From a bacterium (lineage in GTDB: Bacteria; Sysuimicrobiota; Sysuimicrobiia; Sysuimicrobiales; Kaftiobacteriaceae): a DNA stretch of 64,000 nucleotides. Below the pieces are notes generated by a model that was given only the letters and a program-made list of their open reading frames with translations, ran no database searches and was not told where the DNA came from. The stretch spans positions 38,232 to 102,231 of the forward strand of contig DASXUC010000053.1 of NCBI GenBank assembly GCA_036505015.1. The letters run 5' to 3'. The translations under genes were made by a program, and so were the position numbers. This document shows positions 6,666 through 64,000 of this stretch, piece after piece (the stretch's first letter is position 1; every line of letters begins with the position of its first letter).

Positions 6666-7514
6666 ATGCTTCCTGGAGACTATATGAAGCCACACACGCG
6701 CTTCGCCGTTCCAAGCGACCTCACCACACTGGCGGCTCTGTGCCGTGCGGCCGTTGGCCCAGACGACTACGTGCTGGAATACCTTCCCGAGATGGTTGCC
6801 GACAAGGAAATTCTTGTCGCCGTGGCGAGCGGACACATCCGGGCCATGACCGGTCTGACCGAGTGCGCGGATGGCGCGCTGTGGATTGGGCAACTCCGTA
6901 CCCATCCCAGATGGCGCCGCCGCGGCCTGGCGCGGGCGCTGCTGGACCATGCGTATGCGCGTGTCATCCGCGAGCGGCGTCCGGCGCTGCGCCTGTGGAC
7001 GAGCCAGCACAACGTCGCCGCCCGGACTCTGTTCGAGTCGGATGGCTTCAGGCCCGTCGCGGTATTCAGCCGGATGCAGGCCAGAGGGCTTCCGAGTAGA
7101 ATCCGCCGGGGACCTGCGCTCAGCGTCCGCGGGATGAACAGCCTGCTGCGGCGATGGAAACGGTCACTATTCTCCAGACATGCGAAGGGCTATCTGGACT
7201 ACCGCTGGCGTTTCATACGCCTGAATGGGTCGGTGATCCGGACGCTCGTCAGGCGGGGGGAGCTCTTCGTGGGTTCACGAAACGCATTCCTGCTCTGGAA
7301 TGAGGAGGAAGTTCAGACGCACGCTCACGTCGTGGTGCTTACTGGAGGCAAGGCGACGCTGCGGATTGCTCGCCGCACTGCGGGCGCCAAAGGGCATTCA
7401 CTGGTCGAGGCGTTTCTGCCCAGAACGAAACGCTCGCTGGCCGTCGCACGTCAGGCGGGTTTCAGGATGGCGAGCTGGGGAACGCGGGCCATCCTCTTCG
7501 AGCGGCCGGCATGA
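6666..7514 (+). CDS. GNAT family N-acetyltransferase with ~140-aa C-terminal extension
   Basis: Acetyl-CoA binding-type motif QLRTHPRWRRRGLARALL. The stop overlaps the next start (ATGA at 7511-7514). Confidence 0.7.
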   Translation: MLPGDYMKPHTRFAVPSDLTTLAALCRAAVGPDDYVLEYLPEMVADKEILVAVASGHIRAMTGLTECADGALWIGQLRTHPRWRRRGLARALLDHAYARVIRERRPALRLWTSQHNVAARTLFESDGFRPVAVFSRMQARGLPSRIRRGPALSVRGMNSLLRRWKRSLFSRHAKGYLDYRWRFIRLNGSVIRTLVRRGELFVGSRNAFLLWNEEEVQTHAHVVVLTGGKATLRIARRTAGAKGHSLVEAFLPRTKRSLAVARQAGFRMASWGTRAILFERPA

Positions 7515-8242
7515 CACACGAAGAGCGGCTGGAGCTTGCCGGGCGCCTGCGTGACCTCATCCTCGAGCGGTACGCGGACGCAGTCATAGCGGTCTTCGTC
7601 ACAAGTTCGACGGCGCGCGGGCTCGATCTCGAATTCTCTGACCTGGAGTTGACGGCGGTCCATCGCGATGGTGCCGCCCCGCCGGACCGCTCCTACTACT
7701 ACCGCGGCATTCTGATTGAAGTGTCGCACGTTGAGGAGTCGAAGATCCTCGCCCCGCAGATGGAGGCGCGCTGGCCGGAGACGGCCGGCGGGTATCGGGG
7801 CCGCATCGTCCTCTATGAGCGTGACCGCTGGACCGAACGCCTGGACCAAGTCCTCGATGCGTTTGACGCGGTCGAGCGGACTCCGGCGCAACGGATGGCG
7901 CTGCTCGACATGCTGGAGTTCCGTGACAAGCTTCGCAACGCGCGCCTGACCGACGACGAAATTTTCTTTCGCGGGTGCGCCACCTACTTCGCCGACAGTG
8001 CCACCAACTTCGTGCTCTTCCTGAACGGCCGGCAGATGGTCACGACCCGCTGGTTCTTTCAGCAGGCACTGGAGTGCCCGGAGCAGCCGGCGCGGTTCCG
8101 CGAGCACCTCGAAGTACTGCTGGGTGTGCGGCGGGCTAACAGGGAGGAGATCTCTGCTGTTGCGGAGGGCCTGGCGAATGGCCTGATCACGATGGCGGCG
8201 GCGCACGGAATCGTCGCCGAGTCGGAAGAGCTGCTGGTGTGA
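7511..8242 (+). CDS. Kanamycin-nucleotidyltransferase-like (ANT(4')/KNTase family) nucleotidyltransferase
   Basis: The N-terminal pol-beta NTase core reads THEERLELAGRLRDLILERYADAVIAVFVTSSTARGLDLEFSDLELTAV. The usual hG[GS] is SS, followed by D-x-E. A helical C-terminal domain of KNTase-like length follows. Confidence 0.6.
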   Translation: MTHEERLELAGRLRDLILERYADAVIAVFVTSSTARGLDLEFSDLELTAVHRDGAAPPDRSYYYRGILIEVSHVEESKILAPQMEARWPETAGGYRGRIVLYERDRWTERLDQVLDAFDAVERTPAQRMALLDMLEFRDKLRNARLTDDEIFFRGCATYFADSATNFVLFLNGRQMVTTRWFFQQALECPEQPARFREHLEVLLGVRRANREEISAVAEGLANGLITMAAAHGIVAESEELLV

Positions 8243-8256
8243 GTGAACTGGCCTCC

Positions 8257-9195
8257 TCAGTCGCCGGCCAGGGCGGACACCTCGACGGCCTCGTCATCGG
8301 TCATCGTCCACGCCGCCGCCGCAACGTTGATTCCGACATGCTCGGGGGCGGTCACGCCGGTGATAATGGTCGCCACGGCCGGCTGCGCGAGCAGCCAGGC
8401 GATGGCCACGTCGGTGATGCTGTGCTCATACCGCCGCGCCCACTCTTCGAGCTTGCGGACGATGGCAAAGTTCCGGGGCGTAGCAATGGCCCGCGCAAAT
8501 CGCTCATTGTCATGGCCGCGCGTCCCTGCCGGCGCCGGTTCGCCCTCGCGGTATTTTCCCGTCAGCATCCCGCCGGCCAGCGGCGCATAGGGGATGATCC
8601 CAATTCCGAGCGCACGGCAGGCGGGGAGCAGCTCTCGCTCGATGTCTCGGAACAGCAGCGAATAGTGGGGCTGGATGGAGACCAGCGGCGCCCACCCGTG
8701 CCGGTCGGTCGTCCACTGCGCCCAGGTCATCTGCCAGGCCGCGAAGTTGCTGCATCCGACGTATCGCACCTTCCCGGCGCGGACGAGATCGTCCAGCGCT
8801 CGCATCGTTTCATCGATTGGCGTCTCCTGATCCCACCCATGGAGCTGCAGCAGGTCGATGTAGTCGGTGCGCAGCCGGACCAGGCTGGCGTCGACGGCCG
8901 GCAGGATATGCGCGCGGGACGATCCGCGGTCCAGTGGACCGGATCCCATCCGCCCGTGGACCTTCGTCGCGATGACGGCCTGCGCCCGCTTGCCCGCCAG
9001 GGCCGCACCGAGATAGGTCTCCGACAGCCCGCGGCTGTACACGTTGGCGGTATCGAAGAAGTTGACCCCAAGATCGAGCGCGGCCGCGACGATGCGCCCG
9101 GTGCCGGATGCATCCACCCGCGCGCCGAAGGTATTGCCTCCGAGGCCGAGCCGGGAGACCTTCAGCCCCGAGCTGCCGAGCCGGCGATATTCCAT
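8257..9195 (-). CDS. Aldo/keto reductase
   Basis: N-terminus MEYRRLGSSGLKVSRLGLGGNTFG, DTANVYS and the overall AKR pattern. Confidence 0.85.
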   Translation of the reverse strand: MEYRRLGSSGLKVSRLGLGGNTFGARVDASGTGRIVAAALDLGVNFFDTANVYSRGLSETYLGAALAGKRAQAVIATKVHGRMGSGPLDRGSSRAHILPAVDASLVRLRTDYIDLLQLHGWDQETPIDETMRALDDLVRAGKVRYVGCSNFAAWQMTWAQWTTDRHGWAPLVSIQPHYSLLFRDIERELLPACRALGIGIIPYAPLAGGMLTGKYREGEPAPAGTRGHDNERFARAIATPRNFAIVRKLEEWARRYEHSITDVAIAWLLAQPAVATIITGVTAPEHVGINVAAAAWTMTDDEAVEVSALAGD

Positions 9196-9315
9196 CTGCT
9201 GTCACCTGCTGTTCCGATTCCCTCCGACCGCGGGGGCAACCTGTCGCCGTCCCGGTAAACGTCCACCGCCCGCGCGCGGTCAGAGCAGTGACTACGCAGA
9301 AAGGGGTGGCACGCA

Positions 9316-22456: not shown

Positions 22457-25321
22457 ATGGGACTGTTTGTTGTCCCGGTCCAACCCACGACGCTGATCGG
22501 CCGCGCGCGGGAGATCACCGATGCCAGGCACCGCCTGCTCCGTGTTCGCCTGCTGTCCCTCACCGGCCCACCCGGCGTGGGCAAGACCCGTCTGGCGCTC
22601 GCTATCGCTGACGGCGTCAGGGCGGACTTTGACGACGGCATCGTCTTCGTGGATCTCGCCCCCATCACCACAGCCGCGGCCGTGGTGCCGGCCATCGCCC
22701 AGGCCCTCGGCGTGCGCGACGCCCCGGGGCAGAGTCTGCCGGACCGTCTGAAGGCCCACCTCGCCGAGCGGCAGCTGCTGCTGATCCTCGACAATCTCGA
22801 GCATCTGCTCGACGCGGCGCCTCAGTTGGCCGATCTCCTGGGCTCCTGTCCCGCCACAAAGATGCTGGTGACCAGCCGCTCTCCCCTGCGGGTGAGCTGG
22901 GAACACGAGTATCTGGTCCCGGCGTTACCCGTGCCACAACTGAATCCGGTCCCGCCGGTCGAGGTGCTCGTGGACATCCCGGCGGTGCAGCTGTTCATCG
23001 AACGCGCAAAGGCGGTGTCGCCCGAGCTGACCGTGACCGAACGCAACGGGCGTGCGATCGCGGAGATCTGCGCCCGGCTGGATGGTCTCCCCCTGGCGAT
23101 CGAGCTGGCCGCCGCCCGCGCGAAGGCGCTGCCGCCTGAGACGTTGCTCAGCCGTCTGCAGCGGCGACTGGAACTGCTCACCGGCGGCGGACGGGATGCG
23201 CCGCAGCGACATCAGACCCTGCGGCGAGCCATCGGTTGGAGCTACGATCTTCTCGACGAGCCGGAGCGCGCGCTGCTTCGCCAGCTCGCCGTATTCGTAG
23301 GCGGCGCGACGCTCCCGGCGGTCGAAGCGGTCTGCGTCGGGATGCCCGCCGGCGAGCCGGTCATTGACGTGCTGGGGTCGTTGGTCGACAAGAGTCTGGT
23401 CTGGCGGGTCGATGCGGGCGATGAGACCCGCTACCGGCTGCTGGAAACGATCCGGGAATTCGTGCTCGAGCACCTGCACCACTCGGAGGAGTCCGGCCCG
23501 GCACGCCGCCGGCACGCGCAGTTCTTCCGCGCGCTCGCTGAGGCGGCCGACGGGCACCTCAGCGGTCCCGACCAGTCGCCATGGTTGGAGCGGCTGGAGG
23601 TAGAGCACGACAACCTGCGCGCGGCGCTGCAGTGGACGATCGATGCCGGTGAGACGAGCACCGGGCTGCGGCTGGCCGCGGCGCTCGGCCGGTTCTGGGA
23701 GCGCCACGGGTATTCGACCGAGGGCCGGACGTGGCTGCGCACGCTATTGAACGTGCCGCCGCGCGAGGACGACGCGCTGCGTGGGCGGGTGATCAACATC
23801 GCGGGCAATCTGGCGCGGGCCCAAGGCGATTATGGCACTGCCGAAACAATGTACCTCGACAGCCTGGCCATCCGCGAGGCCCTCGGCGACCGGCGGGGCG
23901 TCTCGGCATCGCTGAACAACCTCGGGGTGGCCGCGAAGGACCAGGGCGACTATGCAACGGCGCGCGGCTACTTCGAGCGCAGCCTCGCCGTGAAGCGCGA
24001 GCTGGGCGACCAGCGCGGTATCGCGCTGACGCTCAGCAACCTGGGGCTCGCGTTCAAATCCCAGGGCCACGTCGCCGACGCCGAGCAGTTGCTGACCGAG
24101 AGTATGCAGCTGTTCGCGGCTCTGCCTGATCCGTGGGGGGTGGCCCTCGCGCTGAGCAACCTCGGGGCCGCCGCCACCGCCCGCGGGGACCCCGAGATCG
24201 CTCAGACCCGGTATCTGGACAGCCTGCGCCGCCGGTGGATATTGAAGGATCGGTGGGGGGTGGCCGAGTGCCTGGAAGGTCTGGCCGCCTCACGCGCGGC
24301 GTATGGGCGCGGCGTCGACGCCGCGCGCCTGCTCGGAGCCGCCGAGGCGGTGCGGGAGGCGCTGGGGTTTCCGATTGCGCCGGATGAGCGAATCGGCTAC
24401 AAGCGCGTGGTGGCCGCTGTGCGCGCGGTCCTGAGCGGCGAAGCGTTCTCCGCCGCGTGGCAATTCGGACGTGCCATGCCGCTGGCGGATGCCGTCGAAG
24501 GCGTGTTGGCGGCCGAGAGCGAGCCCGCGGCGAATGGCCCTGGGCCGTTCAGGGTCTCGCTGCTGGGCGGCTTCCGTCTGGTGGCGGGACGGCACGAGGT
24601 GCCCGACGCGGCCTGGGATCGGCCGCAGGCGCTGGCGATTTTTCAATTTCTCGTCCTGCACCGCGCCCGATCCGTCGCCGCCGACGAACTGGTGGACGTG
24701 TTCTGGCCCGGCGCCCGCGCCGTGGAGGACACACCCTTGTATACCACGTTGTCGCGAATCCGCAGGACGCTGCAGCACCTCCCCGGTTTTGCCAACGTGG
24801 AGCTGCTGGCAAAGGCCCGCAGCGGCTACCGCCTCGTCCCGCCCGCCGGCATGACCGTCGACGCGCACGAATTTGAGCTGGCCGTACTCGCAGCGCGGCA
24901 GGCGAACACGGGCGGGCATCTTGACGATGCGGCCCGCCATCTCGCGCATGCACTGACCTTGTACCGCGGCGACCTGTTGGCAGGGGCGCCGCACAGTGAC
25001 TGGTGCAGTTTGGAGCGTGAGGCGCTGCGCCGGCAGTACATCGACGCCGCCTTGCTGCTCGGCCGCATCCACGAACTGCGCGGTCGCCCGCTGGAGGCAT
25101 CCGAGGCGTACCAGCGGGCGCTGGAGCGCGAGCCGGCCACGGAGGCCGCCCACCGCGGGCTGATGCGATGCTATGCCGCGGATGGTCAACGCGACAGTGC
25201 GCTGCGGCAGTATCAGGCCTGCCGCGCGCTCCTCCGGGAGCACCTTGACGTCGATCCCGATGCGGACACCGAGGCCGTGTACCGGGCGCTCCTCGCCGAC
25301 GCGCCGCGGAGCGTGGGATGA
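22457..25321 (+). CDS. STAND (NB-ARC-like) ATPase - TPR - C-terminal winged-helix + BTAD (SARP-type) transcriptional regulator
   Basis: Walker A LTGPPGVGKTRL, Walker B LLLILDNLEH, TPR-like LNNLGVAAKDQGDYATARGYFERSL repeats. The C-terminal part reads FRVSLLGGFRLV...YTTLSRIRRTL...GYRLV followed by BTAD (LMRCYAADGQRDSALRQYQACRALLREHLDVDP). Start chosen at ATG 22457 and is uncertain. Confidence 0.75.
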   Translation: MGLFVVPVQPTTLIGRAREITDARHRLLRVRLLSLTGPPGVGKTRLALAIADGVRADFDDGIVFVDLAPITTAAAVVPAIAQALGVRDAPGQSLPDRLKAHLAERQLLLILDNLEHLLDAAPQLADLLGSCPATKMLVTSRSPLRVSWEHEYLVPALPVPQLNPVPPVEVLVDIPAVQLFIERAKAVSPELTVTERNGRAIAEICARLDGLPLAIELAAARAKALPPETLLSRLQRRLELLTGGGRDAPQRHQTLRRAIGWSYDLLDEPERALLRQLAVFVGGATLPAVEAVCVGMPAGEPVIDVLGSLVDKSLVWRVDAGDETRYRLLETIREFVLEHLHHSEESGPARRRHAQFFRALAEAADGHLSGPDQSPWLERLEVEHDNLRAALQWTIDAGETSTGLRLAAALGRFWERHGYSTEGRTWLRTLLNVPPREDDALRGRVINIAGNLARAQGDYGTAETMYLDSLAIREALGDRRGVSASLNNLGVAAKDQGDYATARGYFERSLAVKRELGDQRGIALTLSNLGLAFKSQGHVADAEQLLTESMQLFAALPDPWGVALALSNLGAAATARGDPEIAQTRYLDSLRRRWILKDRWGVAECLEGLAASRAAYGRGVDAARLLGAAEAVREALGFPIAPDERIGYKRVVAAVRAVLSGEAFSAAWQFGRAMPLADAVEGVLAAESEPAANGPGPFRVSLLGGFRLVAGRHEVPDAAWDRPQALAIFQFLVLHRARSVAADELVDVFWPGARAVEDTPLYTTLSRIRRTLQHLPGFANVELLAKARSGYRLVPPAGMTVDAHEFELAVLAARQANTGGHLDDAARHLAHALTLYRGDLLAGAPHSDWCSLEREALRRQYIDAALLLGRIHELRGRPLEASEAYQRALEREPATEAAHRGLMRCYAADGQRDSALRQYQACRALLREHLDVDPDADTEAVYRALLADAPRSVG

Positions 25322-53276: not shown

Positions 53277-53349
53277 CTTGTCCCGACAACCCAACCGCGA
53301 GGGCCGGGCGTTCAGGTTTTGTTCAGGTCCGGCCGCTAGTCTGACCGCG

Positions 53350-53550
53350 ATGAGCCGGGACGTTCTGGAAGAGATTCTGGCGCGCGCGATGGAAGATGAC
53401 GCGTTCCGAAGCCGGCTGCTCACGGCGCCGGCGCAGGCCCTGGAAAGCTATGCACTCAGCCCGCGGGAGCGCCAGGCATTCATCGCCGGTGACCTGCGGC
53501 AGATCCTCCTCGCCGCCGATCTTCCGCCCGAGATTCAAGGAGCCGAGTGA
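53350..53550 (+). CDS. 66-aa helical protein resembling NHLP/Nif11-leader or LigA-subunit-like domains
   Basis: ATG 53350 within track ORF 53062..53550. MSRDVLEEILARAMEDDAFRSRLLTAPAQALESYALSPRERQAFIAGDL. The stop overlaps the next start (GTGATG). Confidence 0.45.
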   Translation: MSRDVLEEILARAMEDDAFRSRLLTAPAQALESYALSPRERQAFIAGDLRQILLAADLPPEIQGAE

Positions 53551-54023
53551 TGCACACGTCCTGGCACCGCATTTCGATCCTGGCGGTGGTCATGGTCACC
53601 GCGGTGGCGACCGGGTGCGCCCGGCGGCAGCCATCCGCCGCACCACCCGCGCCATCGACCACCGCGCCGCCTTCGGCCTCCACTCAGATTGGATCGATCA
53701 CGTTCGCCCGCGGCGAATCGAACGGCAGCCCCCAGGATCCTGGGGATCACTTTCCTGCCGGGGTGAGTCGCGTCTACGGCTTCTTCACCTTTGCAGGGCT
53801 GAAGGCCGATGACGTCGTGCGCGGCGTCTGGACGGAGGGCGGACGCCAGATTCTCGAGAAGCACCTCACACTCCCGGAAGTATTTAGCGGCCGGACGCCA
53901 GACAAGGGGACCCTGTGGCTGTGGATCCAATGGGCCAAAGGCGCACCGGCGGGGACGTTCCAGTTGGACATCAGCGTGAATGGAACCGTGATGCAGTCGG
54001 GGACCTTTGTCGTGGAGCCGTAG
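53547..54023 (+). CDS. Lipoprotein with single beta-sandwich-like domain
   Basis: Lipobox AVATGC. The C-terminal APAGTFQLDISVNGTVMQSGTFVVEP resembles the first folded domain of the next protein (FAPGDYRVELKVSGG). Confidence 0.55.
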   Translation: MMHTSWHRISILAVVMVTAVATGCARRQPSAAPPAPSTTAPPSASTQIGSITFARGESNGSPQDPGDHFPAGVSRVYGFFTFAGLKADDVVRGVWTEGGRQILEKHLTLPEVFSGRTPDKGTLWLWIQWAKGAPAGTFQLDISVNGTVMQSGTFVVEP

Positions 54024-54043
54024 CCGTGGCTCGCCCAGCCCGC

Positions 54044-57000
54044 ATGCACATGAGACGCGCCGGGGTCGTTGGGGTCGTGCTGCTGGCGTTGATCATCGCG
54101 GCCTGCGGCGGGCCGCAGGGAGCGCGGCGTCCCCGCGTCACCCCGGGACCTGAATCCACCCCGGCCCCTGCGCCGTCGCCGCCCCCGGCGCCCGCCCCGG
54201 CGCCGGCTCCACCACCGCCGCCGACTCCGGCGCCGACTCCCGCTCCGGCACCACCGCCGCCGACTCCGGCGCCGACGCCCGCTCCGGCACCGGCGCCCAC
54301 GCCCGCGCCGACCCCACCTGCGCCCCCCTCGCCGTCGTTTGAGGCCGTCCTGGCCGCCGGGGTGAGCGCGCAGCACGAGCCGGTTTCGCCGACGACCGAA
54401 TTCGTGGAGAACGCGGAGAAGATCTACCTTGCGGTGACATCGCATGCATCGTCGTCGATCCTCGTGTCGTCGACGTGGATCGCTGTGGATGCCGAAGGGT
54501 ACGATCCGAACCAGCAGATCGGCGAGTTCAACCTCAGTCTGGATCCGAACCAGCGCGGCTCGATGTGGATCGGCGCGCCGCGCGGGGGATTCGCCCCAGG
54601 CGACTACCGCGTCGAGCTGAAGGTGTCCGGCGGCGGGTCGCGGCGCTCCCTGGACTTCAAGATCACGCCGCTGCTGCCCCCCGCCGCCCTGCTCACTCCT
54701 GCTGATGCCCCCCGCGGCTTCAACATCGCGCAGTCGGCCCTGGGCGGAAAGGTCGTCAGTGCGACCTCGGAGTACAACGACCGGGATTGGGCGGCCGCGA
54801 ACCTCGTCGACGGCGGCCCCGACGGATGGTCCACGAAGGATCAGACCGTCCCGCAAGAGGTCGTGTTGTCGTTTTTCGGCGGGCGGACGGCGCAGATCGG
54901 CGCCATCGTCATCGACACCGCCACGAAAGAGACGTTGAACACGCCGGACCGGATGCCCAAACTTGTCGAGGTGTGGGTCTCGACCACCAGCGCGACCGAC
55001 GGCTTCACGAGGGTTGCCGGCGCGCGCCTGGCGCGGCGGGCGGTGGAACAACTCATCACGCTGCAGCCGGTCGCCGCGAAGTTCGTGAAAATCCGGTTCC
55101 TCTCCAACCACGGCGGCAGCTACACGCAGGCCGGAGAGATCAAGATCTTTGAAGTGCCCACGGCGAGCTCGATCCTCGCGGACATCCCCAAGAACCTCGC
55201 GCTCCCCGGCCTGGGAGGGTCGGTCGTTCGGTTCACCTCGCAGTCCGGCAGCGGGCACGGCGCCATCCAGCTGGTGGACAACGTCGTGGAGTCGGCCGGG
55301 TGGCGGTCCGCCGACGACTATCTCCCGCAGGACCTGGTGTTTGCGTTCCGCGGCGACCAGACCGCGCTGATCGACCGGATCGTGCTGAACCCCAAGACCA
55401 ACGAGGACCCTTCGACGTGGGTGAAGACGTTCACCGTCGCGGTGTCCGCCGAGACGCCGCTGGATGGGTTCGTGGAGGTTGGGCAGTTCACGCTCACCCA
55501 GGACCCGAAGGATCAGGCGTTTCAGATCAGGCGGCGGGCCCGCTTCGTGAAGGTGCGCATCCTCAAGAACTACGGGGGCCGCTCCACAAGCCTCGGCGAG
55601 GTGAAGATCATCGAGGGGTCGGCCCCGGGCTATGAATCGATCCTGATTTCGCCGATCGCCGCGGCCGCGTCGGCGGCGGCGGGCGTGCAGCCGGTCGACG
55701 AGACCGGCATCGCCGTCGAGAAGGAATCCAACAACACGCCGGCGGACGCCAATCCGCTGGCGTGGGGTCGGCGCACCAAAGGGACGATCGATCCGCTCGG
55801 CGAGTTCGACTACTTCAAGCTCACGCTGCCGCCGCCGGCGCCCGTGCTGACCCTTGAACTGCTCGGTCGGCCGTACATTCGCACCTCGCTCGCCCTGCTC
55901 GATGGATCGGGCACACCGGTGAAGCGGTTCGATCCCGGCGCCGTCCCCTCCGACCATGCCGCATGGACGTGGGCGATGGCCCCCGGCGACTACACCGTCC
56001 AGGTGACCGAGCCGCCGATTTCGATCGTGCTGATCTGGGACACCTCCGGCAGCATGTCCGGCAGCTATAAGGACCTGGAGGTCGCCGTCCAGGGATACCT
56101 CGACCAGGTGGGATCCAGCGAGCGGCTGGCGCTGATCCGGTTCAGCGACAAGGTCGAGGTGCTGCAGGGAGAGTTTACCAGCGACCACGACCGCCTCAAG
56201 GCGGCGGCGCAGGGCAAGTTCTTTGCCAAGGGCGGCACCCCATTCTACGACGCGATCGCGAAAGGCATCGACCTGCTCAGCGGGGTGACGGGCAACCGCG
56301 CCATCATCGTGATGACCGACGGCGAGGACACCGCGAGCAAACTGCATTACCCGGAGTTCTGGCGCCTGCTGGAGGAACGCCGCATCCGGCTGTACACGAT
56401 CGGGCTGGGCGATGAACTGCAGCGGTTCACCAACGAGATCGCCAGCACTCCGGCCCAGATGATGGCGCACATCGCGATGGCGACGAACGGCCGGTCCTTC
56501 TTTGCCCGCACCAGCGAGGACCTCAAAGGTCTCTACCAGCAGATTGCAACGGAGCTGCGCACGGTCTCGACCTACTATCTCAAGCCGTCGCTAAGCAGCG
56601 GCCCGGGGGCCTTGAGCGTAGTGGCCACCGGCGAGCGCATCGCCGCCGTGTCGGCGCCCAGCCAGATCGAGTTGATTCTCGACGCGTCGGGCTCCATGAA
56701 GCTGCGGGTGGAGGGTCGGCCGAAGATCGATATCGCCAAAGAGGTCATGGCCCAGATCATCAAGGGTCTGCCCAACGACGCGCAGGTCGCGCTGCGCATC
56801 TACGGCCACCGCATCCGCGAGGGCCGGAGCGGCGACTGCCAGGATTCGCAGCTCGTCTTCCCGTTCGGCAAGATCGACAAGCCGCGGATGCTGGCGAGGG
56901 TCCGGGAGGTCAACGCGCTGGGGACGACGCCGATTGCCTACTCACTGAAGCAGGTGGCGCGCGATTTCGGCCGGGCGCGCGGCGAGAAGATGGTCATCCT

Positions 57001-57439
57001 GGTGACCGACGGCAAAGAGGAGTGCGGCGGCAGTCCCAGCGCGGTGGTGTCCGAGCTCGTCGCGCGCGGGATCAAGATTAAGCTCAACATCGTGGGCTTC
57101 GCCCTCGCCGATGTGGCCACCAAGCAGGAAATGGAGCGGGTGGCCCGACTGACCGGCGGCCGGTTCTTCGACGCCAGCAACGCCAAGACCCTGACGCAGG
57201 CGATCGAGCAGGCCCTTGCCGTGCCCTACGACGTGGTGGATGCGGCCGGGACGAAGGTCGCCGGCGGCGTGACCGGGCAAGGGGGCGTGAAGGTCCCCGA
57301 GGGCATCTACACCATCATCGTGCGCGCGGCGGGCAAGCCGATCGAAATTCCCAACGTGCGCATCGCCGCCAGCCGTTTCACCAAGGTCGTGCTGAAGAAG
57401 GAAGGGCAGGAGATCGGCATTCAGGTTCAGGGCCCATGA
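54044..57439 (+). CDS. Large lipoprotein: Pro-rich linker, beta-sandwich, 2 x discoidin (F5/8 type C)-like, PPC-like, 2 x vWA, C-terminal beta-sandwich
   Basis: ATG 54044 with lipobox LIIAAC. Discoidin-like segments end in KFVKIRFLSNHGGSYTQAGEIKIFE and RFVKVRILKNYGGRSTSLGEVKIIE. PPC-like NNTPADANPL...GEFDYFKL. MIDAS motifs IWDTSGSMSG...TPFYDAI...MTDGEDT and LDASGSM...TTPIAYSL...VTDGKEECGG. Confidence 0.75.
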   Translation: MHMRRAGVVGVVLLALIIAACGGPQGARRPRVTPGPESTPAPAPSPPPAPAPAPAPPPPPTPAPTPAPAPPPPTPAPTPAPAPAPTPAPTPPAPPSPSFEAVLAAGVSAQHEPVSPTTEFVENAEKIYLAVTSHASSSILVSSTWIAVDAEGYDPNQQIGEFNLSLDPNQRGSMWIGAPRGGFAPGDYRVELKVSGGGSRRSLDFKITPLLPPAALLTPADAPRGFNIAQSALGGKVVSATSEYNDRDWAAANLVDGGPDGWSTKDQTVPQEVVLSFFGGRTAQIGAIVIDTATKETLNTPDRMPKLVEVWVSTTSATDGFTRVAGARLARRAVEQLITLQPVAAKFVKIRFLSNHGGSYTQAGEIKIFEVPTASSILADIPKNLALPGLGGSVVRFTSQSGSGHGAIQLVDNVVESAGWRSADDYLPQDLVFAFRGDQTALIDRIVLNPKTNEDPSTWVKTFTVAVSAETPLDGFVEVGQFTLTQDPKDQAFQIRRRARFVKVRILKNYGGRSTSLGEVKIIEGSAPGYESILISPIAAAASAAAGVQPVDETGIAVEKESNNTPADANPLAWGRRTKGTIDPLGEFDYFKLTLPPPAPVLTLELLGRPYIRTSLALLDGSGTPVKRFDPGAVPSDHAAWTWAMAPGDYTVQVTEPPISIVLIWDTSGSMSGSYKDLEVAVQGYLDQVGSSERLALIRFSDKVEVLQGEFTSDHDRLKAAAQGKFFAKGGTPFYDAIAKGIDLLSGVTGNRAIIVMTDGEDTASKLHYPEFWRLLEERRIRLYTIGLGDELQRFTNEIASTPAQMMAHIAMATNGRSFFARTSEDLKGLYQQIATELRTVSTYYLKPSLSSGPGALSVVATGERIAAVSAPSQIELILDASGSMKLRVEGRPKIDIAKEVMAQIIKGLPNDAQVALRIYGHRIREGRSGDCQDSQLVFPFGKIDKPRMLARVREVNALGTTPIAYSLKQVARDFGRARGEKMVILVTDGKEECGGSPSAVVSELVARGIKIKLNIVGFALADVATKQEMERVARLTGGRFFDASNAKTLTQAIEQALAVPYDVVDAAGTKVAGGVTGQGGVKVPEGIYTIIVRAAGKPIEIPNVRIAASRFTKVVLKKEGQEIGIQVQGP
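54212..54289 (+). repeat. 39-bp tandem duplication (1 mismatch) inside the Pro-rich linker
   Basis: 54212-54250 and 54251-54289 both encode PPPPTPAPTPAPA. They differ at a single position, T at 54238 versus G at 54277. Confidence 0.9.
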
Positions 57440-59580
57440 TCGCGCGGCGCCGCATCACGATTGCCGCCGCGCTGGTCGTCGCCGCGGCGCTCGTTCTGGT
57501 GGGCTGTGCGTCGCCCCAGGCCGGCGCCCCCGGCCCACCCCCGGCTGGTGCCCCGCTCGGCGCCCGCGGTCCGGGCATGAAGCCGATGAACCTGGCCGAC
57601 CTGCCGCTCCCGGTCCCGCGGACATTTGAACTGACCCACGTCACGCCGGCCGCCTTCGCGCAGGCCCTGGGCAAAGACGTTACCCGCATCTTTGAGTTTG
57701 TGCGAGACAACATTGCTTTTGAGGCGTACTCCGGAGTCCTCCGCGGGCCGCGGGGGACGCTGCTGGCGATGGCCGGCAACTCCGCCGACCGCGCGACCCT
57801 GCTGGCCGCCCTGTTGACCGAGTCGGGCTATCAGGTCCGTTTCGCGAAGGGGACCCTTTCGCGGCGCGATGCCCAAGAACTGGTGAGTTCGATCTGGGCT
57901 CCCCTGCCGAGGCTGCCCGGCCAGAACAAAACAGCCACCGACGTAGCGAAGACGGCCGTTCAGGCATTTGTGAGATCGGGGAAACGCGAGTTCGGCAGGA
58001 TCCAAGACGCGCTCAAGCAGGCAACACCTGATGCGACCCAGGTCGGCCCAGCGTTCGACACCCTGGTAGCAGAAACCCTGACGCACTACTGGGTGCAGGT
58101 TGCAAAGGACGGCGGCTGGATCGATCTGGACCCGTCGTTCGCCGATTCGGCGGTGGGCGGCGCTCACGCGACAGCCGACGAGACGATGGAGACGTTGCCG
58201 GCAAACCTTTATCATCGCGTCACGCTCAGGGTGGTCGCGGACGTATCGGACGGCACGAGCGCTCGAACTGAGGAACTGGTCACATATTCTGCCAACGCAG
58301 CAGATCTCTCCGGCGTCGACATCGTCCTGGTGCACGTTCCGGAAAACTGGACCGGCCCGGTGCGGAATATTCAAGGGGCTCTGTCTTCGGCGATGTCGGA
58401 CACCGGCCGCTTCAAGCCCGTGCTGCTCCGCGCCGGTGCTGCCCCGATCATTGGCGCGCCGTTGACGATGGAAGTGCAGACGTCCGGCGCTCCGGGGGTC
58501 ATCAACATCCTGAAGGGTCAGGGGACGCGACATGCCGCGGAGATTGCTGTCGCAGAACGGATTGAATTCACCTTCGATTCTCCCGATCGGCGCCGCGACG
58601 GCGCGGTCCGGGACGTGTTCGACTCGTTGGGCGCAGCACGCCGCGCCGCGGGTCGCGCACTCACGCCGGAGGAGGTCAGCGCGCTCGCCACGACTTCGCG
58701 GCGTGATCTGGTGACGCCCAGGTTCCTCAGTATCTTCATCACCACGGGCCGCCTCGACGCGGCGCATCTCGTTGGTGCCTCGGCAGCATCGAGTCCGGCT
58801 CAGGGGGCTCGGCCGGGAGCCTCGCCGATGCCTCTGCGGCGATTGGCGGTCACCTATCAAGTCATGTCCGACATGCTGCTGGCCCGGCTGGGCTCGCCCG
58901 ACAAGGCGATCGTGAGCTTCTACCCGGTCTCACCACGGGTGTTCATCGCAGAGTTTTCCGCTCAGGGCAAGCGGTTCCGGTTGGCAGTGGATCTGCGGCG
59001 TGACCGCGCCCGAGCCGTGGCAAGAAGTGCAGATGCCCAATTCGTCTTCAGGGCAAACGTCATGCGAGGCGTTGTCGATGGGACGCTGGAGCGCATGGTG
59101 ATTGACTATGTCGCGGCTCAAATCCCGGGAACCGTTGATCTCAAGACCGGCCTCAATACGAGTCAGCTGTTCCAAATCGCTGACGATCAGCGAGTGTCTG
59201 ACGTTCTCGTCACCAGCGATCAGGCGCGGCTGGATCCCGCGGTCTCGCAGGATGCGGTCTCGAGGCTGCTCGATGACATCCGCAATGGCAACTACGCGGT
59301 CGCGCCGCAGCGGCCGGTCCGCGTGAACGACGAGTCTCGCTACGCCTGGTGGAGCGTCAACCCGCACAGTGGAGAAACGATTGCGGTCGCCGATGACGGG
59401 TTACATCAGGCCGGCACGGAGTACGTCGTCGATAACGGTGATGGGACCTTTGATGTGTGGGTGGAAGCCGAGTCAGGCCAGGGCGCTTTTCCGGTGGCTG
59501 AGGGCATTGGGATCGATGCGCTGGCCGATCTTGTGTTTGAGGCGCTGCTGGAAGGGATCGAAGTTCTCGGTCCACTGTGA
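57436..59580 (+). CDS. Lipoprotein with transglutaminase-like core in which the nucleophile Cys is Ser, paralog 1
   Basis: The start overlaps the upstream stop (ATGA). Lipobox [34 protein letters not shown] ... THYWVQVAKDGGWIDLDPSF matches the G-x-C...H-x-W...D-P layout of Transglut_core, with Ser116 at the Cys position. Confidence 0.6.
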   Translation: MIARRRITIAAALVVAAALVLVGCASPQAGAPGPPPAGAPLGARGPGMKPMNLADLPLPVPRTFELTHVTPAAFAQALGKDVTRIFEFVRDNIAFEAYSGVLRGPRGTLLAMAGNSADRATLLAALLTESGYQVRFAKGTLSRRDAQELVSSIWAPLPRLPGQNKTATDVAKTAVQAFVRSGKREFGRIQDALKQATPDATQVGPAFDTLVAETLTHYWVQVAKDGGWIDLDPSFADSAVGGAHATADETMETLPANLYHRVTLRVVADVSDGTSARTEELVTYSANAADLSGVDIVLVHVPENWTGPVRNIQGALSSAMSDTGRFKPVLLRAGAAPIIGAPLTMEVQTSGAPGVINILKGQGTRHAAEIAVAERIEFTFDSPDRRRDGAVRDVFDSLGAARRAAGRALTPEEVSALATTSRRDLVTPRFLSIFITTGRLDAAHLVGASAASSPAQGARPGASPMPLRRLAVTYQVMSDMLLARLGSPDKAIVSFYPVSPRVFIAEFSAQGKRFRLAVDLRRDRARAVARSADAQFVFRANVMRGVVDGTLERMVIDYVAAQIPGTVDLKTGLNTSQLFQIADDQRVSDVLVTSDQARLDPAVSQDAVSRLLDDIRNGNYAVAPQRPVRVNDESRYAWWSVNPHSGETIAVADDGLHQAGTEYVVDNGDGTFDVWVEAESGQGAFPVAEGIGIDALADLVFEALLEGIEVLGPL

Positions 59581-59639
59581 AGGATCGCGCTAAACGCGCG
59601 CCACGGTCCGTACCAAAACTGGGGGGTGGAGGTGCAAAG

Positions 59640-59912
59640 ATGGGCTGGCTGGACAAGGTGAAGGAAGGCATGGAGAAGGCAGCGGGGCAGGCGGAAGAGA
59701 TGGCGGCTGTAGGCAAGCTGCGCGTGGAAATCCGCAGCTTGACCGGCAAGATGGAGGACGCGTTCAAGGCCATCGGGGCGAAAGTCTACGACCTACATGA
59801 AGCCGGAACGGCGTTTCCCGCGGAGGTCGACGCGCTGGTCCAGGCGGCCGACCAGTTCGCGGATCAGATCAAAGCGAAGGAAGCCGAAATCGAGGAGTTG
59901 CGGAAAACGTAG
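59640..59912 (+). CDS. 90-aa coiled-coil protein
   Basis: ATG 59640 preceded by GGTGGAGG. MGWLDKVKEGMEKAAGQAEEMAAVGKLRVEIRSL...KAKEAEIEELRKT. The stop abuts the next ATG. Confidence 0.6.
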   Translation: MGWLDKVKEGMEKAAGQAEEMAAVGKLRVEIRSLTGKMEDAFKAIGAKVYDLHEAGTAFPAEVDALVQAADQFADQIKAKEAEIEELRKT

Positions 59913-62051
59913 ATGCGACCGCGCTCCATCCTCGCTGCCGCGTCAGCCGCTGTGGTGCTCACCCTCGCCCTGAGCGCCTGCCAGGGTGGACCGCGGCGTG
60001 GCGGGCAGGTCGCCCCAGCGAGCGCCCAGGGCCCGGGTCTGCATCAACTCACGATTTCTGCGTTACCCCTGTCCGTGCCGCGCCGGCTGGATCTGTCGCA
60101 TGTCGATCCCGCGCGGTTTGCGGAGGCCCTCAAGCATGACCCAAGCCGGATTTTCGAGTTCGTCCGCGACGAGGTCGCGTTTGAAGCCTACTCGGGGGTG
60201 CTCCGCGGCCCGCGGGGAACGCTGCTGGCGATGGCGGGCAATTCGGCCGATCGGGCATTGTTGCTGGCGGCGATGCTCACGGCGTCGGGGCAGCAGGTCC
60301 GGTTCGCCCGTGGGACTTTGCCGGAGGGACTCGCGCGCCAACTCGTGACCTCTATGTGGACGGAGCGCGCCGGTACACCGAAGCAGCAACCCGAAGATTA
60401 TCCGCAGTGGGCCCGCGACGCCCTCGAGAAGATCAAAGATTCCGTGACAGCGGATTACGCGCTCGTCCATGATCAGCTCGCCAGGCAGCGCCGCGCTGGA
60501 GGATCTGCCGGGCCTACGCTCGACCAACTGGTGCAAGAGGTGCGGACGCATTACTGGGTGCAGCGGTCAGGTCCTCAGGGGTGGGAAGACCTGGATCCGT
60601 CGTTCGCTGATGCGGTCCCCGCCCGCGCGTACGCCCAGATCGATGAAACTCTGGCGGCCATTCCGGCATCGCAGTTCCACACGGTTACCTTCGAAGTCAT
60701 CGTGGAGGAGCATGACGGGAGCGCCGCCTCGCGCCGCACGGTGTTGACTTTCTCGGCGGCGTCAGCCGACCTGGCGGGTCGGGACGCGGCGCTGGCCCAT
60801 GTCCCCGAACAGTGGGGCGGTCCCAGCATCGCGGGAGCGATCCGGTCGGCCGTGACCGACACGGGCCGCGTGAAGCCCGTCATCCTCATCGGCGCCGACG
60901 CGCACCAGGGAGATCCGTTCCTGCCGAAGGTGAAGACGACCGGCCTGGGTGGTATCCCAGGACTCCTCCGCGGCTCCGGAACCCGCCACTCCGAGACGGT
61001 GGTGCTTGCCGAGTGGCTGCAGCTGGCGTTTGCCGATCCTGCGGGCGGACGCATCCAGGTGAGCCGTGAAGTTTACGACCTCCTCGGCCCAGCCCGCCGC
61101 GCCGCAGGAGGCGCCGTGACCGCAGACGACGTTCAAAGATTGACCGCGGATTTCGACGTCTCCCAGCTCACGCGCACGCTGTTGAGTGTGTTCATTGTCC
61201 CAGGCCATGTCCTCGCGGAGCATCTCGCGGACGCCTCCCCCGTGCCGTGGAACCAAGGTGATGCCATCGATCTGCGGTCGATGTTGCTGGAAGTGAACGT
61301 GGCATTCGTGGCCGCCGCCGACGGCATGGCTGATCGGATGACCGCGGCCAACGGGGCGCCCGTGCGTTCCTACCCCGCATCGCCGCGGGTGGTCATCGCA
61401 ACATTCGCAGAAACCGGCGGCCACCCGCGCATCACGCTAGATCTCCGCAGAACCACCGCCAGGACCGTCTCGTCTGATGCATCCGCGGACGTCGTTTCGG
61501 TCCAGGCGCTGCGCGGCGTCCTCGAAGGCGCGTTTGAGTGGACGGTGATGGACCACCTCACCTCACGGGCCCGGGAGCGCGTCGGCGGGGGCGACATCAT
61601 CAGTACCTCCTCGATCTTCGCACGCATGCGCGCGGAACGGATTTCCCCCGTGCTCCTGCCGGGAGGCGGCCTGACCGATGTCCAAGACGATGCCGCGGCC
61701 CGGATCAGGAGCGACAGCCAGGGCGGCTATCTCGCACTCGCCCCGGCGCGGAGCGTGATGATCAACGGACGCCCGCGCCTGGCATGGTGGCGGATCGATC
61801 CGACGTCCGGCGAAACGGTGGGGGTCACCGACGAAGGTCTGTATGAAGCGGCCACCGAGAGCGAGTTGACGATCGAGTATAGTGAAGGCAACACCCAGGT
61901 TTCCGTGCAGCTCGTGCGGCCCGTCGCCGGCACTGCGGGTACGACCACCTATTCATTTAGCGGCGGCGTGATGGAACTGGCGACGGATATTCGCGTGCTG
62001 ACGGCCCTTGGGTACGCGTCCGATTGGATCATTCGCACGATCCATCGATGA
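59913..62051 (+). CDS. Lipoprotein with transglutaminase-like core (Cys to Ser), paralog 2
   Basis: Lipobox [34 protein letters not shown] ... [20 protein letters not shown]. Colinear similarity to paralog 1 along the whole length. Confidence 0.6.
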
Positions 62052-62165: not shown

Positions 62166-62696
62166 GTGAATCGACTGAGGCACGTACATGTGATCGTAGC
62201 CGTCGTGGCGACACTCTTGGTCGGACTGCCCGGACTTGCCCGAGCGCAGACCATCGAGCAGCGGCTCGCCACGATCAAAGCCGGGCTCGAACGTGAAGGG
62301 TTGAAGGTCCTCGAGGTGCGGTACACGCCCGTGGACCGCAACGGACCGGCGTACTGGTTCGGGGTCACCGCCACCACGTACAGCCAGCCGAACTGGCCGG
62401 CCGTGGCCAAGCAGGCGCTGGTGACCTGGCTGGTCATGAACGAGTCCACCGCATCCGATCCGCCGGAATCCATGCTGATGTCGGCGCAGGTCTGGACCAA
62501 GTACATGATCCAGATCGGGCAGCAGAACAAGCTCGTGTCGGAGTTCGCTGCCGCGTTGAAGGCGGCGCGGACGGACGCTGAGAAGAATGCCGCCGTGAAC
62601 AAAGTGCTGGGAAGGTTTCTTGTGCGGGTCTTCGATCTGGAGCGGAATCAGTTCGTCGACGCGAAGGACTTTGTGAACAAGAATTTCATGGACTAA
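62166..62696 (+). CDS. Secreted protein, unknown function
   Basis: GTG start after AAAGGGGGTG and signal peptide VVATLLVGLPGLARAQ. No motif recognised. Confidence 0.5.
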   Translation: MNRLRHVHVIVAVVATLLVGLPGLARAQTIEQRLATIKAGLEREGLKVLEVRYTPVDRNGPAYWFGVTATTYSQPNWPAVAKQALVTWLVMNESTASDPPESMLMSAQVWTKYMIQIGQQNKLVSEFAAALKAARTDAEKNAAVNKVLGRFLVRVFDLERNQFVDAKDFVNKNFMD

Positions 62697-62710
62697 AAGG
62701 GGGGACTGAG

Positions 62711-63004
62711 ATGACCTGGTTGTGGATCACGATAGCGCAGCAACTGCCGCCGTTTGCGATTCCATCGGGGGGCACGGATTACGGGCGCATCTTGCTGAAT
62801 GCCGTCTTCCTCTTGTTCTGGGTCGTGGTCGCCGGGATCGCGTTTGCGATCATGGCCCCGATCGCGATGCGGGTCTTCAACCGCGTCACGCCGGGGATCG
62901 ACGAGATGGAGGAATTGAAGAAGGGGAACATGGCGGTCGCGCTGGTCCAGGCGGCGACCATCCTGGCCATGGCGGTGCTGGTCCTCGCGGTGGTCTTGAA
63001 GTAG
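62711..63004 (+). CDS. DUF350-like small membrane protein
   Basis: Two or three TM helices with the loop TPGIDEMEELKKGNMAVALVQAATILAMAV, typical of DUF350. Confidence 0.6.
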   Translation: MTWLWITIAQQLPPFAIPSGGTDYGRILLNAVFLLFWVVVAGIAFAIMAPIAMRVFNRVTPGIDEMEELKKGNMAVALVQAATILAMAVLVLAVVLK

Positions 63005-63029
63005 GCGCCGCGATTCCGGGAGGACGGTC

Positions 63030-63881
63030 ATGGAAATCACCGTCAGCGAGCAGAAGGTCTTCATGGTCCACCCCCGCGTCACCGATGAAGCGGCGCGGGA
63101 GCGGGCGGTGGAGCAGAAAGGCGCGGCGTTTGGCTCCGTGGCGCGGCTGCTGCTGCGTCCCAGGGGCGAGGAGATCAAGATCGTCTCCATCGGCAAACGA
63201 TTCGACCCGATCTGGCATGTCATCGCGCACAAGCACGTCGTCTTTGACCGGGGGCGTGAGTACCGGGTCCCGGTGGCCGATGGGACCGTGCAGGGCGTGA
63301 CCGTGAAGGGGGACGACTACCAGGTGGCGGCGGGCCCGCCGCGGCACTTCATCATCCGCGGCGTGGAACACTGCATCGACGACGCCCGGCTGGAGAAGCT
63401 CGTCGACGCCGTGGGCGGCGCCGACATCGAGGCGAAGGCCGTGCTCGCCGCGCCGCGCGAGGAAATCGTGGAACTGGCGGACTTCGCGCCCCCCGATGCC
63501 ATTGTGGTGCCCCCCGACGTGCGGGCGTCGATGCTGGTCCAGACCCTGGTGCAGCAACTGGTGAAGCCGTACGAGGCGGACCAACTCTTCGAAGAGATGA
63601 TCGAAATCGAGCAGCTGCATCTCATCTACCATCCGGTCTACGCCATCGAGTACACGTGGGAAGCCAAAGGGAAGAAGGCGATGCTGGAACTCGACGCGGT
63701 GGGCGGCGAGGTGACGACCGGCAGCCGGGCCTTCCAGCAGCAGATGCGCCGCATCTTCAACCGGGAGGTGTTGTTCGATCTCGGCGCGGAATCGGTGAAC
63801 CTGATCGTCCCGGGCGGCGCCATCGCGCTGAAGATCGGCAAGGCCGTCGTGGACCATCAGCGGCGGCAGAAGGGCGGATGA
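63030..63881 (+). CDS. Hypothetical 283-aa protein
   Basis: RBS GGGAGGA, soluble, no recognised motif. Sits between the DUF350 and PrsW genes. Confidence 0.5.
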   Translation: MEITVSEQKVFMVHPRVTDEAARERAVEQKGAAFGSVARLLLRPRGEEIKIVSIGKRFDPIWHVIAHKHVVFDRGREYRVPVADGTVQGVTVKGDDYQVAAGPPRHFIIRGVEHCIDDARLEKLVDAVGGADIEAKAVLAAPREEIVELADFAPPDAIVVPPDVRASMLVQTLVQQLVKPYEADQLFEEMIEIEQLHLIYHPVYAIEYTWEAKGKKAMLELDAVGGEVTTGSRAFQQQMRRIFNREVLFDLGAESVNLIVPGGAIALKIGKAVVDHQRRQKGG

Positions 63882-63900
63882 CGAACGAGGAGGGCGGACG

Positions 63901-64000
63901 ATGATCCCGATTCTGGCGCTGCTGGTCACCTTTATCCCGGCGGTGCTGTGGCTGTGGTTCTTCTACAGCCGAGACCGGTATGAGCATGAACCGAAGCGGT
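63901..64000 (+). CDS. PrsW family intramembrane protease, 3' end cut by window edge
   Basis: RBS GAGGAGGG. MIPILALLVTFIPAVLWLWFFYSRDRYEHEPKR matches the N-terminus of the PrsW at 21169 (LAPVVFWLWYFQMRDRLHPEPRA). Confidence 0.65.
   Translation, partial: MIPILALLVTFIPAVLWLWFFYSRDRYEHEPKR

Follow-up and report, generated by a model that had tools for sequence, protein, structure and literature searches.

We analysed a cluster of six genes in a 64,000-nucleotide stretch of bacterial DNA and found that its core is a conserved pair: a von Willebrand factor A (vWA) domain with a complete metal-ion-dependent adhesion site (MIDAS), followed by a beta-sandwich, and an exported transglutaminase-like (TGL) protein that lacks the catalytic cysteine. 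The cluster occupies positions 53350-62051 of this stretch (hereafter the window), which has a GC content of 67% and belongs to a 103-kb contig in the 2.85-Mb metagenome-assembled genome (MAG) of an uncultured soil bacterium; the named sources among the protein matches were 'candidate division NC10' and 'Methylomirabilales'. To judge from comparative sequence analysis, the true unit is the pair formed by the second vWA domain of protein C (vWA2) with its beta-sandwich and the TGL gene. This pair is a conserved, undescribed variant of the vWA-transglutaminase partnership of the cell envelope, and in the literature we found no published description of it. We favour, with a probability of about 45%, the reading that the pair forms an ATP-independent, extracytoplasmic, membrane-anchored and metal-dependent binding complex.

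The six open reading frames (ORFs), here called A to F (Table 1), are tightly packed in the same direction and are preceded by sufB, sufD, a Rieske gene and sufS. An earlier annotation made from the letters of this DNA (the sequence-only reading) had described a six-gene lipoprotein operon. Reading the sequence directly, we found the gene junctions as it had quoted them (GTGATG at 53547, ATGA at 57436 and a TAG abutting an ATG at 59910-59915), as well as the four lipobox products (VATG before C24 in B, IAA before C21 in C, LVG before C24 in D and LSA before C23 in F). These four proteins each have one hydrophobic segment, located at the N-terminus and ending in the lipobox cysteine, and hydrophobic-segment prediction found no such segment or export signal in A and E. 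Pfam and NCBIfam searches detected no AAA+/MoxR gene among the six products or their neighbours, and PADLOC returned no anti-phage defence match for any of the six products.

Synteny in other genomes, one of the checks by which the sequence-only reading had proposed that it could be refuted, was examined in related and distant bacteria, and syntenic homologs were found in the genus, elsewhere in the order (other genera and other families) and in further phyla. In the genus, and likewise in two more genera of its family, A, C and E remain grouped with one or two TGL genes beside suf genes, in orders that differ, for example C-F'-D'-E in genome G001, TGL-A-C-E-x-B in G014 and A-C-E-TGL in G019 (G, L and P numbers are our handles for genomes, loci and proteins). 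C and a TGL gene are kept in a genome of another family (G039). The linkage has been kept despite gene reshuffling, suggesting that it is functional and not a matter of inherited order alone. Orthologs of C in related genomes are 47-84% identical.

A pattern scan of species-representative genomes for relatives of D returned 31 loci, all in MAGs, from Methylomirabilales, Isosphaeraceae, Gemmataceae, Gemmatimonadales, several Acidobacteriota classes, Kiloniellaceae, Gammaproteobacteria and a Chloroflexia bin. These loci were searched by tblastn with each domain of C as a separate query. A vWA2-type domain was found within 4 kb of the TGL gene in 21 of the 27 loci with enough flanking sequence, usually ending 50-450 bp upstream of it on the same strand, and often with a discoidin-like gene or domain before it. 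At least six phyla contain the pair (Methylomirabilota, Planctomycetota, Gemmatimonadota, Acidobacteriota, Alpha- and Gammaproteobacteria). L023 and L028 encode discoidin and vWA in separate genes, C has the two fused, and the vWA and TGL parts themselves are naturally fused in P0036, a single 1160-aa protein on a metagenome contig.

Co-occurrence was counted in 94 genomes of the phylum. TGL proteins were present in 11 and vWA2-type domains in 12; 11 genomes had both, one had the vWA only and 82 had neither (Fisher p=1.7e-13). In all 11, wherever the assembly permits the check, the two are on the same contig. All-versus-all ORF clustering of 38 loci, which because of the 67% GC yielded mostly shadow ORFs, found besides vWA and discoidin no family, and no ATPase, kept beside the pair across phyla. 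That vWA and transglutaminase-like proteins combine without an ATPase, as the sequence-only reading had pointed out, is real and recurrent. Its six-gene lipoprotein operon holds as a conserved unit of packed genes but was overstated: what is shared across phyla is vWA2 with its beta-sandwich together with TGL, and often a discoidin protein as well.

In its logic, the pair comes closest to the known operons that encode MoxR, a DUF58/vWA protein and a TgpA (YebA-type) protein, such as PA2875-PA2874-tgpA in P. aeruginosa. What the two have in common is a vWA-fold gene beside an envelope-anchored periplasmic transglutaminase-like protein, and some TGL members resemble TgpA in overall topology, with an N-terminal membrane anchor of 5-7 helices. 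TgpA is a six-helix inner-membrane protein whose periplasmic transglutaminase domain has the catalytic triad and is active in vitro (PMC3507681). In contrast, the pair described here has no AAA+ MoxR, its vWA partner is of the MIDAS type and not DUF58, and its TGL protein has no catalytic cysteine, no DUF3488 or DUF4129 (no match in D, F or the polytopic variant P0004) and ~430 additional C-terminal residues without a known relative. The pair separates the widespread vWA-transglutaminase partnership from the MoxR ATPase.

We next consider the TGL proteins. D and F had been described as two TGase-fold paralogs of ~712 residues, and their alignment bears this out (42% identity over 678 residues, E-value 4e-147). 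The Transglut_core model (PF01841) matched D with 30.9 bits against a cut-off of 23, and F at a sub-threshold 16.6 bits. The TGL core of D spans residues ~80-233 and is followed by beta-rich domains. When a profile of 82 homologs was searched against 1.84 billion representatives, the family comprised 2,468 clusters (50% identity) at an E-value of 1e-30 or below and 4,941 at 1e-10 or below; beyond the weak Transglut_core match it has no name. All members that we examined are exported, by a lipobox (at least 44 of the 82), a signal peptide or an N-terminal anchor of 5-7 helices. In the last group, variants of ~930-960 residues (P0004, P0020, P0035, P0041, P0079, P0156 and P0172), 5-7 predicted transmembrane helices replace the lipobox, and this N-terminal domain has no Pfam match. 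The pair defines a large, phylum-spanning and unnamed exported family in soil lineages that have been little studied (Methylomirabilota, Acidobacteriota, Gemmatimonadota and Planctomycetota). Tandem TGL duplicates like D and F are common elsewhere (L024, L028, L032, L042, L044, L054). Within the genus, identity is 62-86% for F and 50-56% for D, which indicates that D is fast-evolving or has been replaced by paralogs.

The position of the catalytic cysteine (G-x-C) was compared across the family. D and F share the motifs GNSAD, HYWVQ and DLDP, and both have Ser116 at this position. Among the 82 homologs the column holds Ser (69), Ala (8) or Gly (5), and among 109 diverse representatives it holds Ser (54, about half), Ala (43), Gly (4), Thr (2) or Pro (1); cysteine occurs in none of the 191 members examined. 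Asp takes the position in the distant loci L051 and L055. The rest of the triad is retained, with H217 and D232 each present in 108 of the 109 diverse representatives. An Asn-x-x-Asp motif (N115 and D118) is nearly invariant across the same set, as are Y98, R103, W219, W228, R392, D396, D519, E552, W638 and W639.

These findings bear directly on a matrix cross-linking role, which the sequence-only reading had offered as one possibility. In such an extracellular, 'clotting-like' system the TGL proteins would cross-link vWA/discoidin substrates. The domain set of F5/8-C, vWA and transglutaminase fold does echo animal clotting factors. However, with Ser or Ala/Gly in the nucleophile column (Ala or Gly in ~40% of the diverse members), acyl-enzyme chemistry, be it thiol- or serine-based, is unlikely, and cross-linking can no longer be upheld as a reading. 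Ala also stands at this position in orthologous clusters of sister genera (L019, L020, L037). Judged from the alignments, thiol-based cross-linking by the family is very unlikely, and we give the clotting-like system as a whole hardly any credence. By the same alignments, the TGL protein cannot be a conventional transglutaminase or cysteine protease, and the annotation 'transglutaminase-like putative cysteine protease' is probably wrong on activity whether the site binds or catalyses. The retained His and Asp, together with the new Asn-x-x-Asp, leave room for a ligand- or metal-binding site, or for unconventional catalysis.

Transglutaminase folds that turned to binding or scaffold roles after loss of the nucleophile are known from erythrocyte band 4.2 (Cys to Ala), Rad4/XPC and the TGL domain of ciliary DRC7. 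All of these are eukaryotic and intracellular, and most have no His/Asp, whereas the TGL proteins keep His/Asp and have a fixed Asn-x-x-Asp. An AlphaFold2 (AF2) model of D was obtained with good scores (pLDDT 85.4, pTM 0.87). Foldseek with the whole model gave weak local matches to the transglutaminase fold (TMq at most 0.14), headed by axonemal chains that are probably DRC7-like non-catalytic TGL domains, and including arylamine N-acetyltransferases, FXIIIa/TG2, the pseudomurein endoisopeptidase PeiP (8z4f) and 3isr. One beta-sandwich of D gave an arrestin-like match. The family profile had no matches at an E-value of 1 or below among PDB sequences.

An alternative that we consider unlikely, but the foremost among the rivals, is that the TGL proteins are thiol-free enzymes acting through a site of Asn-x-x-Asp, His and Asp, perhaps with a metal, or through Ser where it is present. 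Such an enzyme would process either the vWA protein itself or a polymer of the envelope, such as the stem peptide of peptidoglycan or an amide in an exopolysaccharide, and the vWA would serve as substrate adaptor, as for MoxR ATPases. That N115, D118, H217 and D232 are nearly invariant while the nucleophile alone varies argues for it, and the fold matches include true enzymes (PeiP, arylamine N-acetyltransferases, FXIIIa, TG2). The invariant C-terminal-domain residues R392, D396, D519, E552, W638 and W639 suggest a composite functional site. On the other side, a column of Ser, Ala, Gly, Thr, Pro and Asp is unlike that of a covalent catalyst, the Foldseek matches are weak over the whole query, and we know of no papain- or transglutaminase-fold enzyme without a nucleophile. 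A more elaborate version appears to us less likely still: the TGL proteins would be a new extracytoplasmic enzyme class, with the site rebuilt on Asn-x-x-Asp, His and Asp as a possible metal centre, an obligate MIDAS vWA adaptor bringing the substrates without an ATPase, and a connection to A and E; it would be the ATP-free equivalent, in the periplasm, of the MoxR-vWA logic. If the site were catalytic, it would represent new chemistry on an old fold.

The partner that travels with the TGL gene across phyla is the C-terminal 286 residues of C (846-1131). The alignment of 23 vWA2-type segments showed an invariant MIDAS (D35, S37, S39, T117 and D144, in the pattern D-x-S-G-S-M ... G-x-T-P ... 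T-D-G). C149, within TDGxExC, is invariant as well, and a second cysteine (CxDS/T) is present in most segments; these cysteines would fit an oxidising compartment. An 80-residue C-terminal beta-sandwich domain ends the protein. The AF2 model of the segment (pLDDT 84) shows the vWA domain followed by the beta-sandwich, and the segment is 96% identical to its ortholog in the closest (sister) genome. The region N-terminal to this module varies, from nothing in a 266-aa protein (L023) to discoidin domains or PA14 with a prenyltransferase-like toroid (L018).

Foldseek and profile searches identified generic vWA proteins as the closest solved structures: 4fx5 (a Catenulispora vWA protein), archaeal ArnB (8s05) and BatB (3ibs; Foldseek E-value 1e-9, TMt 0.66-0.68, profile E-value 3e-7). 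ITIH1, the pilus adhesins SpaC and PilB and integrin I-domains were further fold matches. BatA and BatB are envelope-anchored and among the closest relatives of vWA2. Their function is also unresolved (PMC3557215). The BatA model (NF047508) gave 41.3 bits, far below its cut-off of 380, and Bat operons have MoxR, DUF58 and TPR proteins and no TGL partner, while vWA2 has the C-terminal beta-sandwich and C149. With vWA-tipped adhesins (CglB of Myxococcus gliding, SpaC, PilB, the integrin I-domain) it shares an exposed MIDAS vWA for metal-dependent binding. It scores 16-19 bits with the CglB model against a cut-off of 200, and no pilus or gliding machinery is linked to it here.

From the N-terminus, the full protein C consists of a lipobox, a Pro/Thr/Ala stalk, an N-terminal domain, two F5/8-C domains, a PPC-like region, vWA1, vWA2 and the beta-sandwich. 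The domain assignments of the sequence-only reading largely survived profile searches (two F5/8-C, two vWA with MIDAS and Transglut_core), its PPC call being the one that did not reach significance. Both discoidin-like domains score above the Pfam cut-off of 28.2. The two vWA domains (Pfam VWA, 84.8 bits overall and 43.1 for vWA2 alone) have full MIDAS motifs, DTSGS..T..D and DASGS..T..D. vWA1 passes the acidobact_VWFA model TIGR03436 (86.0 bits against a cut-off of 81.25), and the TGL-linked vWA2, at 25 bits, does not. In Pfam the PPC-like region had no match even at an E-value of 1; a profile of seven sequences of this region had as top PDB match the collagen-binding domain of ColH (3jqw), weakly (E-value 0.11) and on the basis of the motif E-x-E-x-NN...D-x-F. 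The 39-bp tandem duplication in the stalk is possibly a site of stalk-length variation or of assembly collapse. Homology of B to the N-terminal domain of C was considered and could not be established (BLASTP E-value 0.07).

In the binding complex that we favour, the MIDAS vWA2 domain and its beta-sandwich would pair with the pseudo-transglutaminase D, duplicated as F, and D and F would act as non-thiol binding or scaffold subunits after loss of the catalytic cysteine. The MIDAS metal of vWA2 would clamp an acidic group, either on the TGL partner or on a ligand that the two share. Target specificity would come from the variable N-terminal modules of the vWA protein, here the stalk, two discoidin domains, PPC-like region and second vWA, elsewhere PA14 or the toroid, and the target is probably a glycan or an envelope polymer. 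Within the order, the pair has gained the small proteins A (NHLP-like) and E (helical), and probably an activator-dependent promoter of its own. The TGL variants with polytopic inner-membrane anchors and the stalk of C, with its ~100 residues, point to a complex that spans the periplasm or is embedded in the envelope at least as much as to one at the cell surface. Adhesion or ligand capture, both raised by the sequence-only reading, we infer to be the best remaining function. If this is correct, the pair would represent a new kind of device for adhesion or capture at the envelope, with lectin heads that can be swapped.

Several observations weigh against a binding complex of this kind. At five loci (L036, L038, L040, L045 and L055) the TGL gene has no vWA nearby. 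A third, solo TGL paralog was found in the same genome (G000:C162, 45351-47444; in locus L021 at 7367-9220, minus strand); it encodes a lipoprotein with the motif GNSLD and ~30% identity to D, and no vWA gene is present within the ~1 kb upstream of it, where the contig ends. The near-invariance of His217, Asp232, Asn115 and Asp118 even in members with Ala or Gly hints at a chemical or metal-binding function and not at a dead site. A and E, restricted to this bacterial order and without export signals, are unexplained by a pure surface-binding model. The contact between vWA and TGL and the ligand of the MIDAS are conjecture. Finally, the three sequencing runs in which the cluster sequence was found are all DNA runs.

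The companion genes were examined separately. A is present in 8 of the 11 TGL-positive genomes of the phylum compared with 2 of the 83 others, and strong homologs of E were found in 9 of the 11 and in two incomplete genomes. No other genes of the cluster are as conserved as these two, with 86-93% identity within the genus. E, for which Pfam and NCBIfam contain no match, shows 91-93% identity inside the genus and 61-73% outside it, in other genera, usually adjoins vWA or TGL genes and had just 35 close relatives in a word-based search; its longest ORF begins with a GTG at 59577 and encodes 111 aa. By these distributions, A and E are lineage-specific companions of the pair. B also had no Pfam or NCBIfam match, and its homologs occupy differing positions in related clusters. 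In one incomplete genome (G051:C55), A-like (704-871) and E-like (2087-2383) genes lie ~1.2 kb apart and neither TGL nor vWA was detected, which may be due to a gap in the assembly or to A and E occurring as a pair of their own.

A matches models of the NHLP clan (NF038399, E-value 1.1e-9; PF14407, E-value 2e-8) and is translationally coupled to B, raising the idea of a system for ribosomally synthesised and post-translationally modified peptides (RiPPs), in which A would be a precursor destined for processing and export, with the TGL proteins as its peptidases. However, all its scores are below the curated cut-offs (NF038399, 38.2 against 40; PF14407, 34.8 against 48; TIGR04509, 23.6 against 34; TIGR03793, 22.3 against 50.9). 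Its homologs consist of a conserved 55-aa helical domain and a variable acidic tail of 5-10 residues, with no Gly-Gly site and no core peptide rich in Cys, Ser or Thr. Pfam and NCBIfam searches of the cluster found no maturase and no ABC exporter, including the peptidase-containing type. The TGL proteins are extracytoplasmic and have no nucleophile, and in other phyla the pair occurs without A. On these grounds, A is not convincing as a RiPP precursor, and we regard a RiPP-like system as very improbable.

Table 1. Features of the cluster and of its surroundings. Coordinates are those of the window unless another locus is named.
Feature	Coordinates	Strand	Description
Candidate activator-dependent promoter	53311..53342	+	TTCAGG-N5-TTCAGG (53311-53327), 9 nt, TAGTCT, 7 nt, ATG of A
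Gene A	53350..53550	+	66 aa; small helical protein, NHLP clan; no signal peptide, no core peptide
Gene B	53547..54023	+	158-aa lipoprotein; start overlaps stop codon of A
Gene C	54044..57439	+	1131-aa lipoprotein
Stalk of C	54161..54310	+	Pro/Thr/Ala-rich; follows lipobox
Tandem duplication in stalk of C	54210-54291	+	39 bp x 2.1, 97% matches, score 157 (Tandem Repeats Finder)
Two F5/8 type C (discoidin-like) domains of C	54689..55663	+	PF00754, 34.4 and 30.9 bits
PPC-like region of C	55664..56008	+	Domain assignment not significant
vWA1 of C	56009..56578	+	acidobact_VWFA type; PF00092, residues 661-819; MIDAS complete
vWA2 and C-terminal beta-sandwich of C	56579..57436	+	Part travelling with TGL gene across phyla
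Gene D	57436..59580	+	714-aa lipoprotein; cysteine-less TGL core
G-N-S-A-D motif of D	57775..57789	+	Residues 114-118; Ser116 at catalytic-Cys position
Gene E	59640..59912	+	~90-aa helical protein; ATG start after GGAGG; no signal peptide
Gene F	59913..62051	+	712-aa lipoprotein; TGL paralog of D
STAND regulator, locus L026	461-3442
STAND regulator, locus L017	3-2639
STAND regulator, locus L018	12308-15529
STAND regulator, locus L020	3668-6628
STAND regulator, locus L046	15407-18427

Upstream of A we found a direct repeat with an 11-bp period that occurs nowhere else in the window (by chance, 0.08 matches would be expected). The layout of this repeat and the -10-like TAGTCT hexamer upstream of A is kept in two same-genus genomes (L025 and L026) and partly in the sister genus (L017, G014). 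By its layout the element looks like an activator-type (SARP/OmpR-like) promoter giving a leaderless or near-leaderless transcript, and a leaderless transcript would explain why A has no ribosome-binding site. No sigma-54 promoter was found upstream of A, though clean sites occur elsewhere in the window, and a generic scan for sigma-70 promoters and terminators gave counts near shuffle expectation.

The only additional family that recurred in the clustering was a STAND regulator of ~1000 aa (NB-ARC, TPR, Trans_reg_C and BTAD), which stands beside the cluster in five relatives (Table 1). In G001 its gene forms an insertion that separates sufS from A. In the genome analysed here its best homolog (50% identity) lies at 22472-25291 of the window, 28 kb upstream, and there are at least six further paralogs. 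Downstream of F lies an operon that occupies 62166-64000 and continues to the contig end (L056). Its products are a secreted protein of 176 aa, a DUF350-like membrane protein with two helices, a protein of 283 aa and a polytopic, PrsW-like protein. This operon is syntenic with the cluster in several relatives. The 283-aa protein belongs to no family and has no hydrophobic segment; it was considered as a core component and rejected, its distant members being found in unrelated contexts without vWA or TGL.

These surroundings allow a further alternative, in which the cluster would be a trans-envelope module for signalling or stress. A complex of the exported vWA and TGL proteins would sense an envelope or external cue and relay it to cytoplasmic A and E, possibly also to the downstream operon, under the control of the STAND-type regulator. 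A and E have no hydrophobic segment, co-occur with the pair and are strongly conserved; the regulator adjoins the cluster in relatives, the promoter repeat is conserved, several relatives keep the downstream operon in synteny, and the paralogous L018 cluster described below includes a homolog of the 283-aa protein. Against such a module, the six genes encode no transmembrane signal transducer, the pair occurs in other phyla without A and E, members of the 283-aa family are found elsewhere with neither vWA nor TGL, and the regulator is not adjacent in this genome. We judge signalling improbable, somewhat more so than the thiol-free chemistry discussed above, and retain the metal-dependent binding complex as the favoured reading.

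In the sister genus we also detected a second, paralogous cluster (L018, G014:C1, 3913-12590, minus strand). It comprises an A-like gene, two 182-aa ORFs, the 283-aa homolog, a TGL protein of 883 aa without the cysteine, a 156-aa ORF and a 996-aa protein in which PA14, the prenyltransferase-like toroid and a vWA domain are combined.

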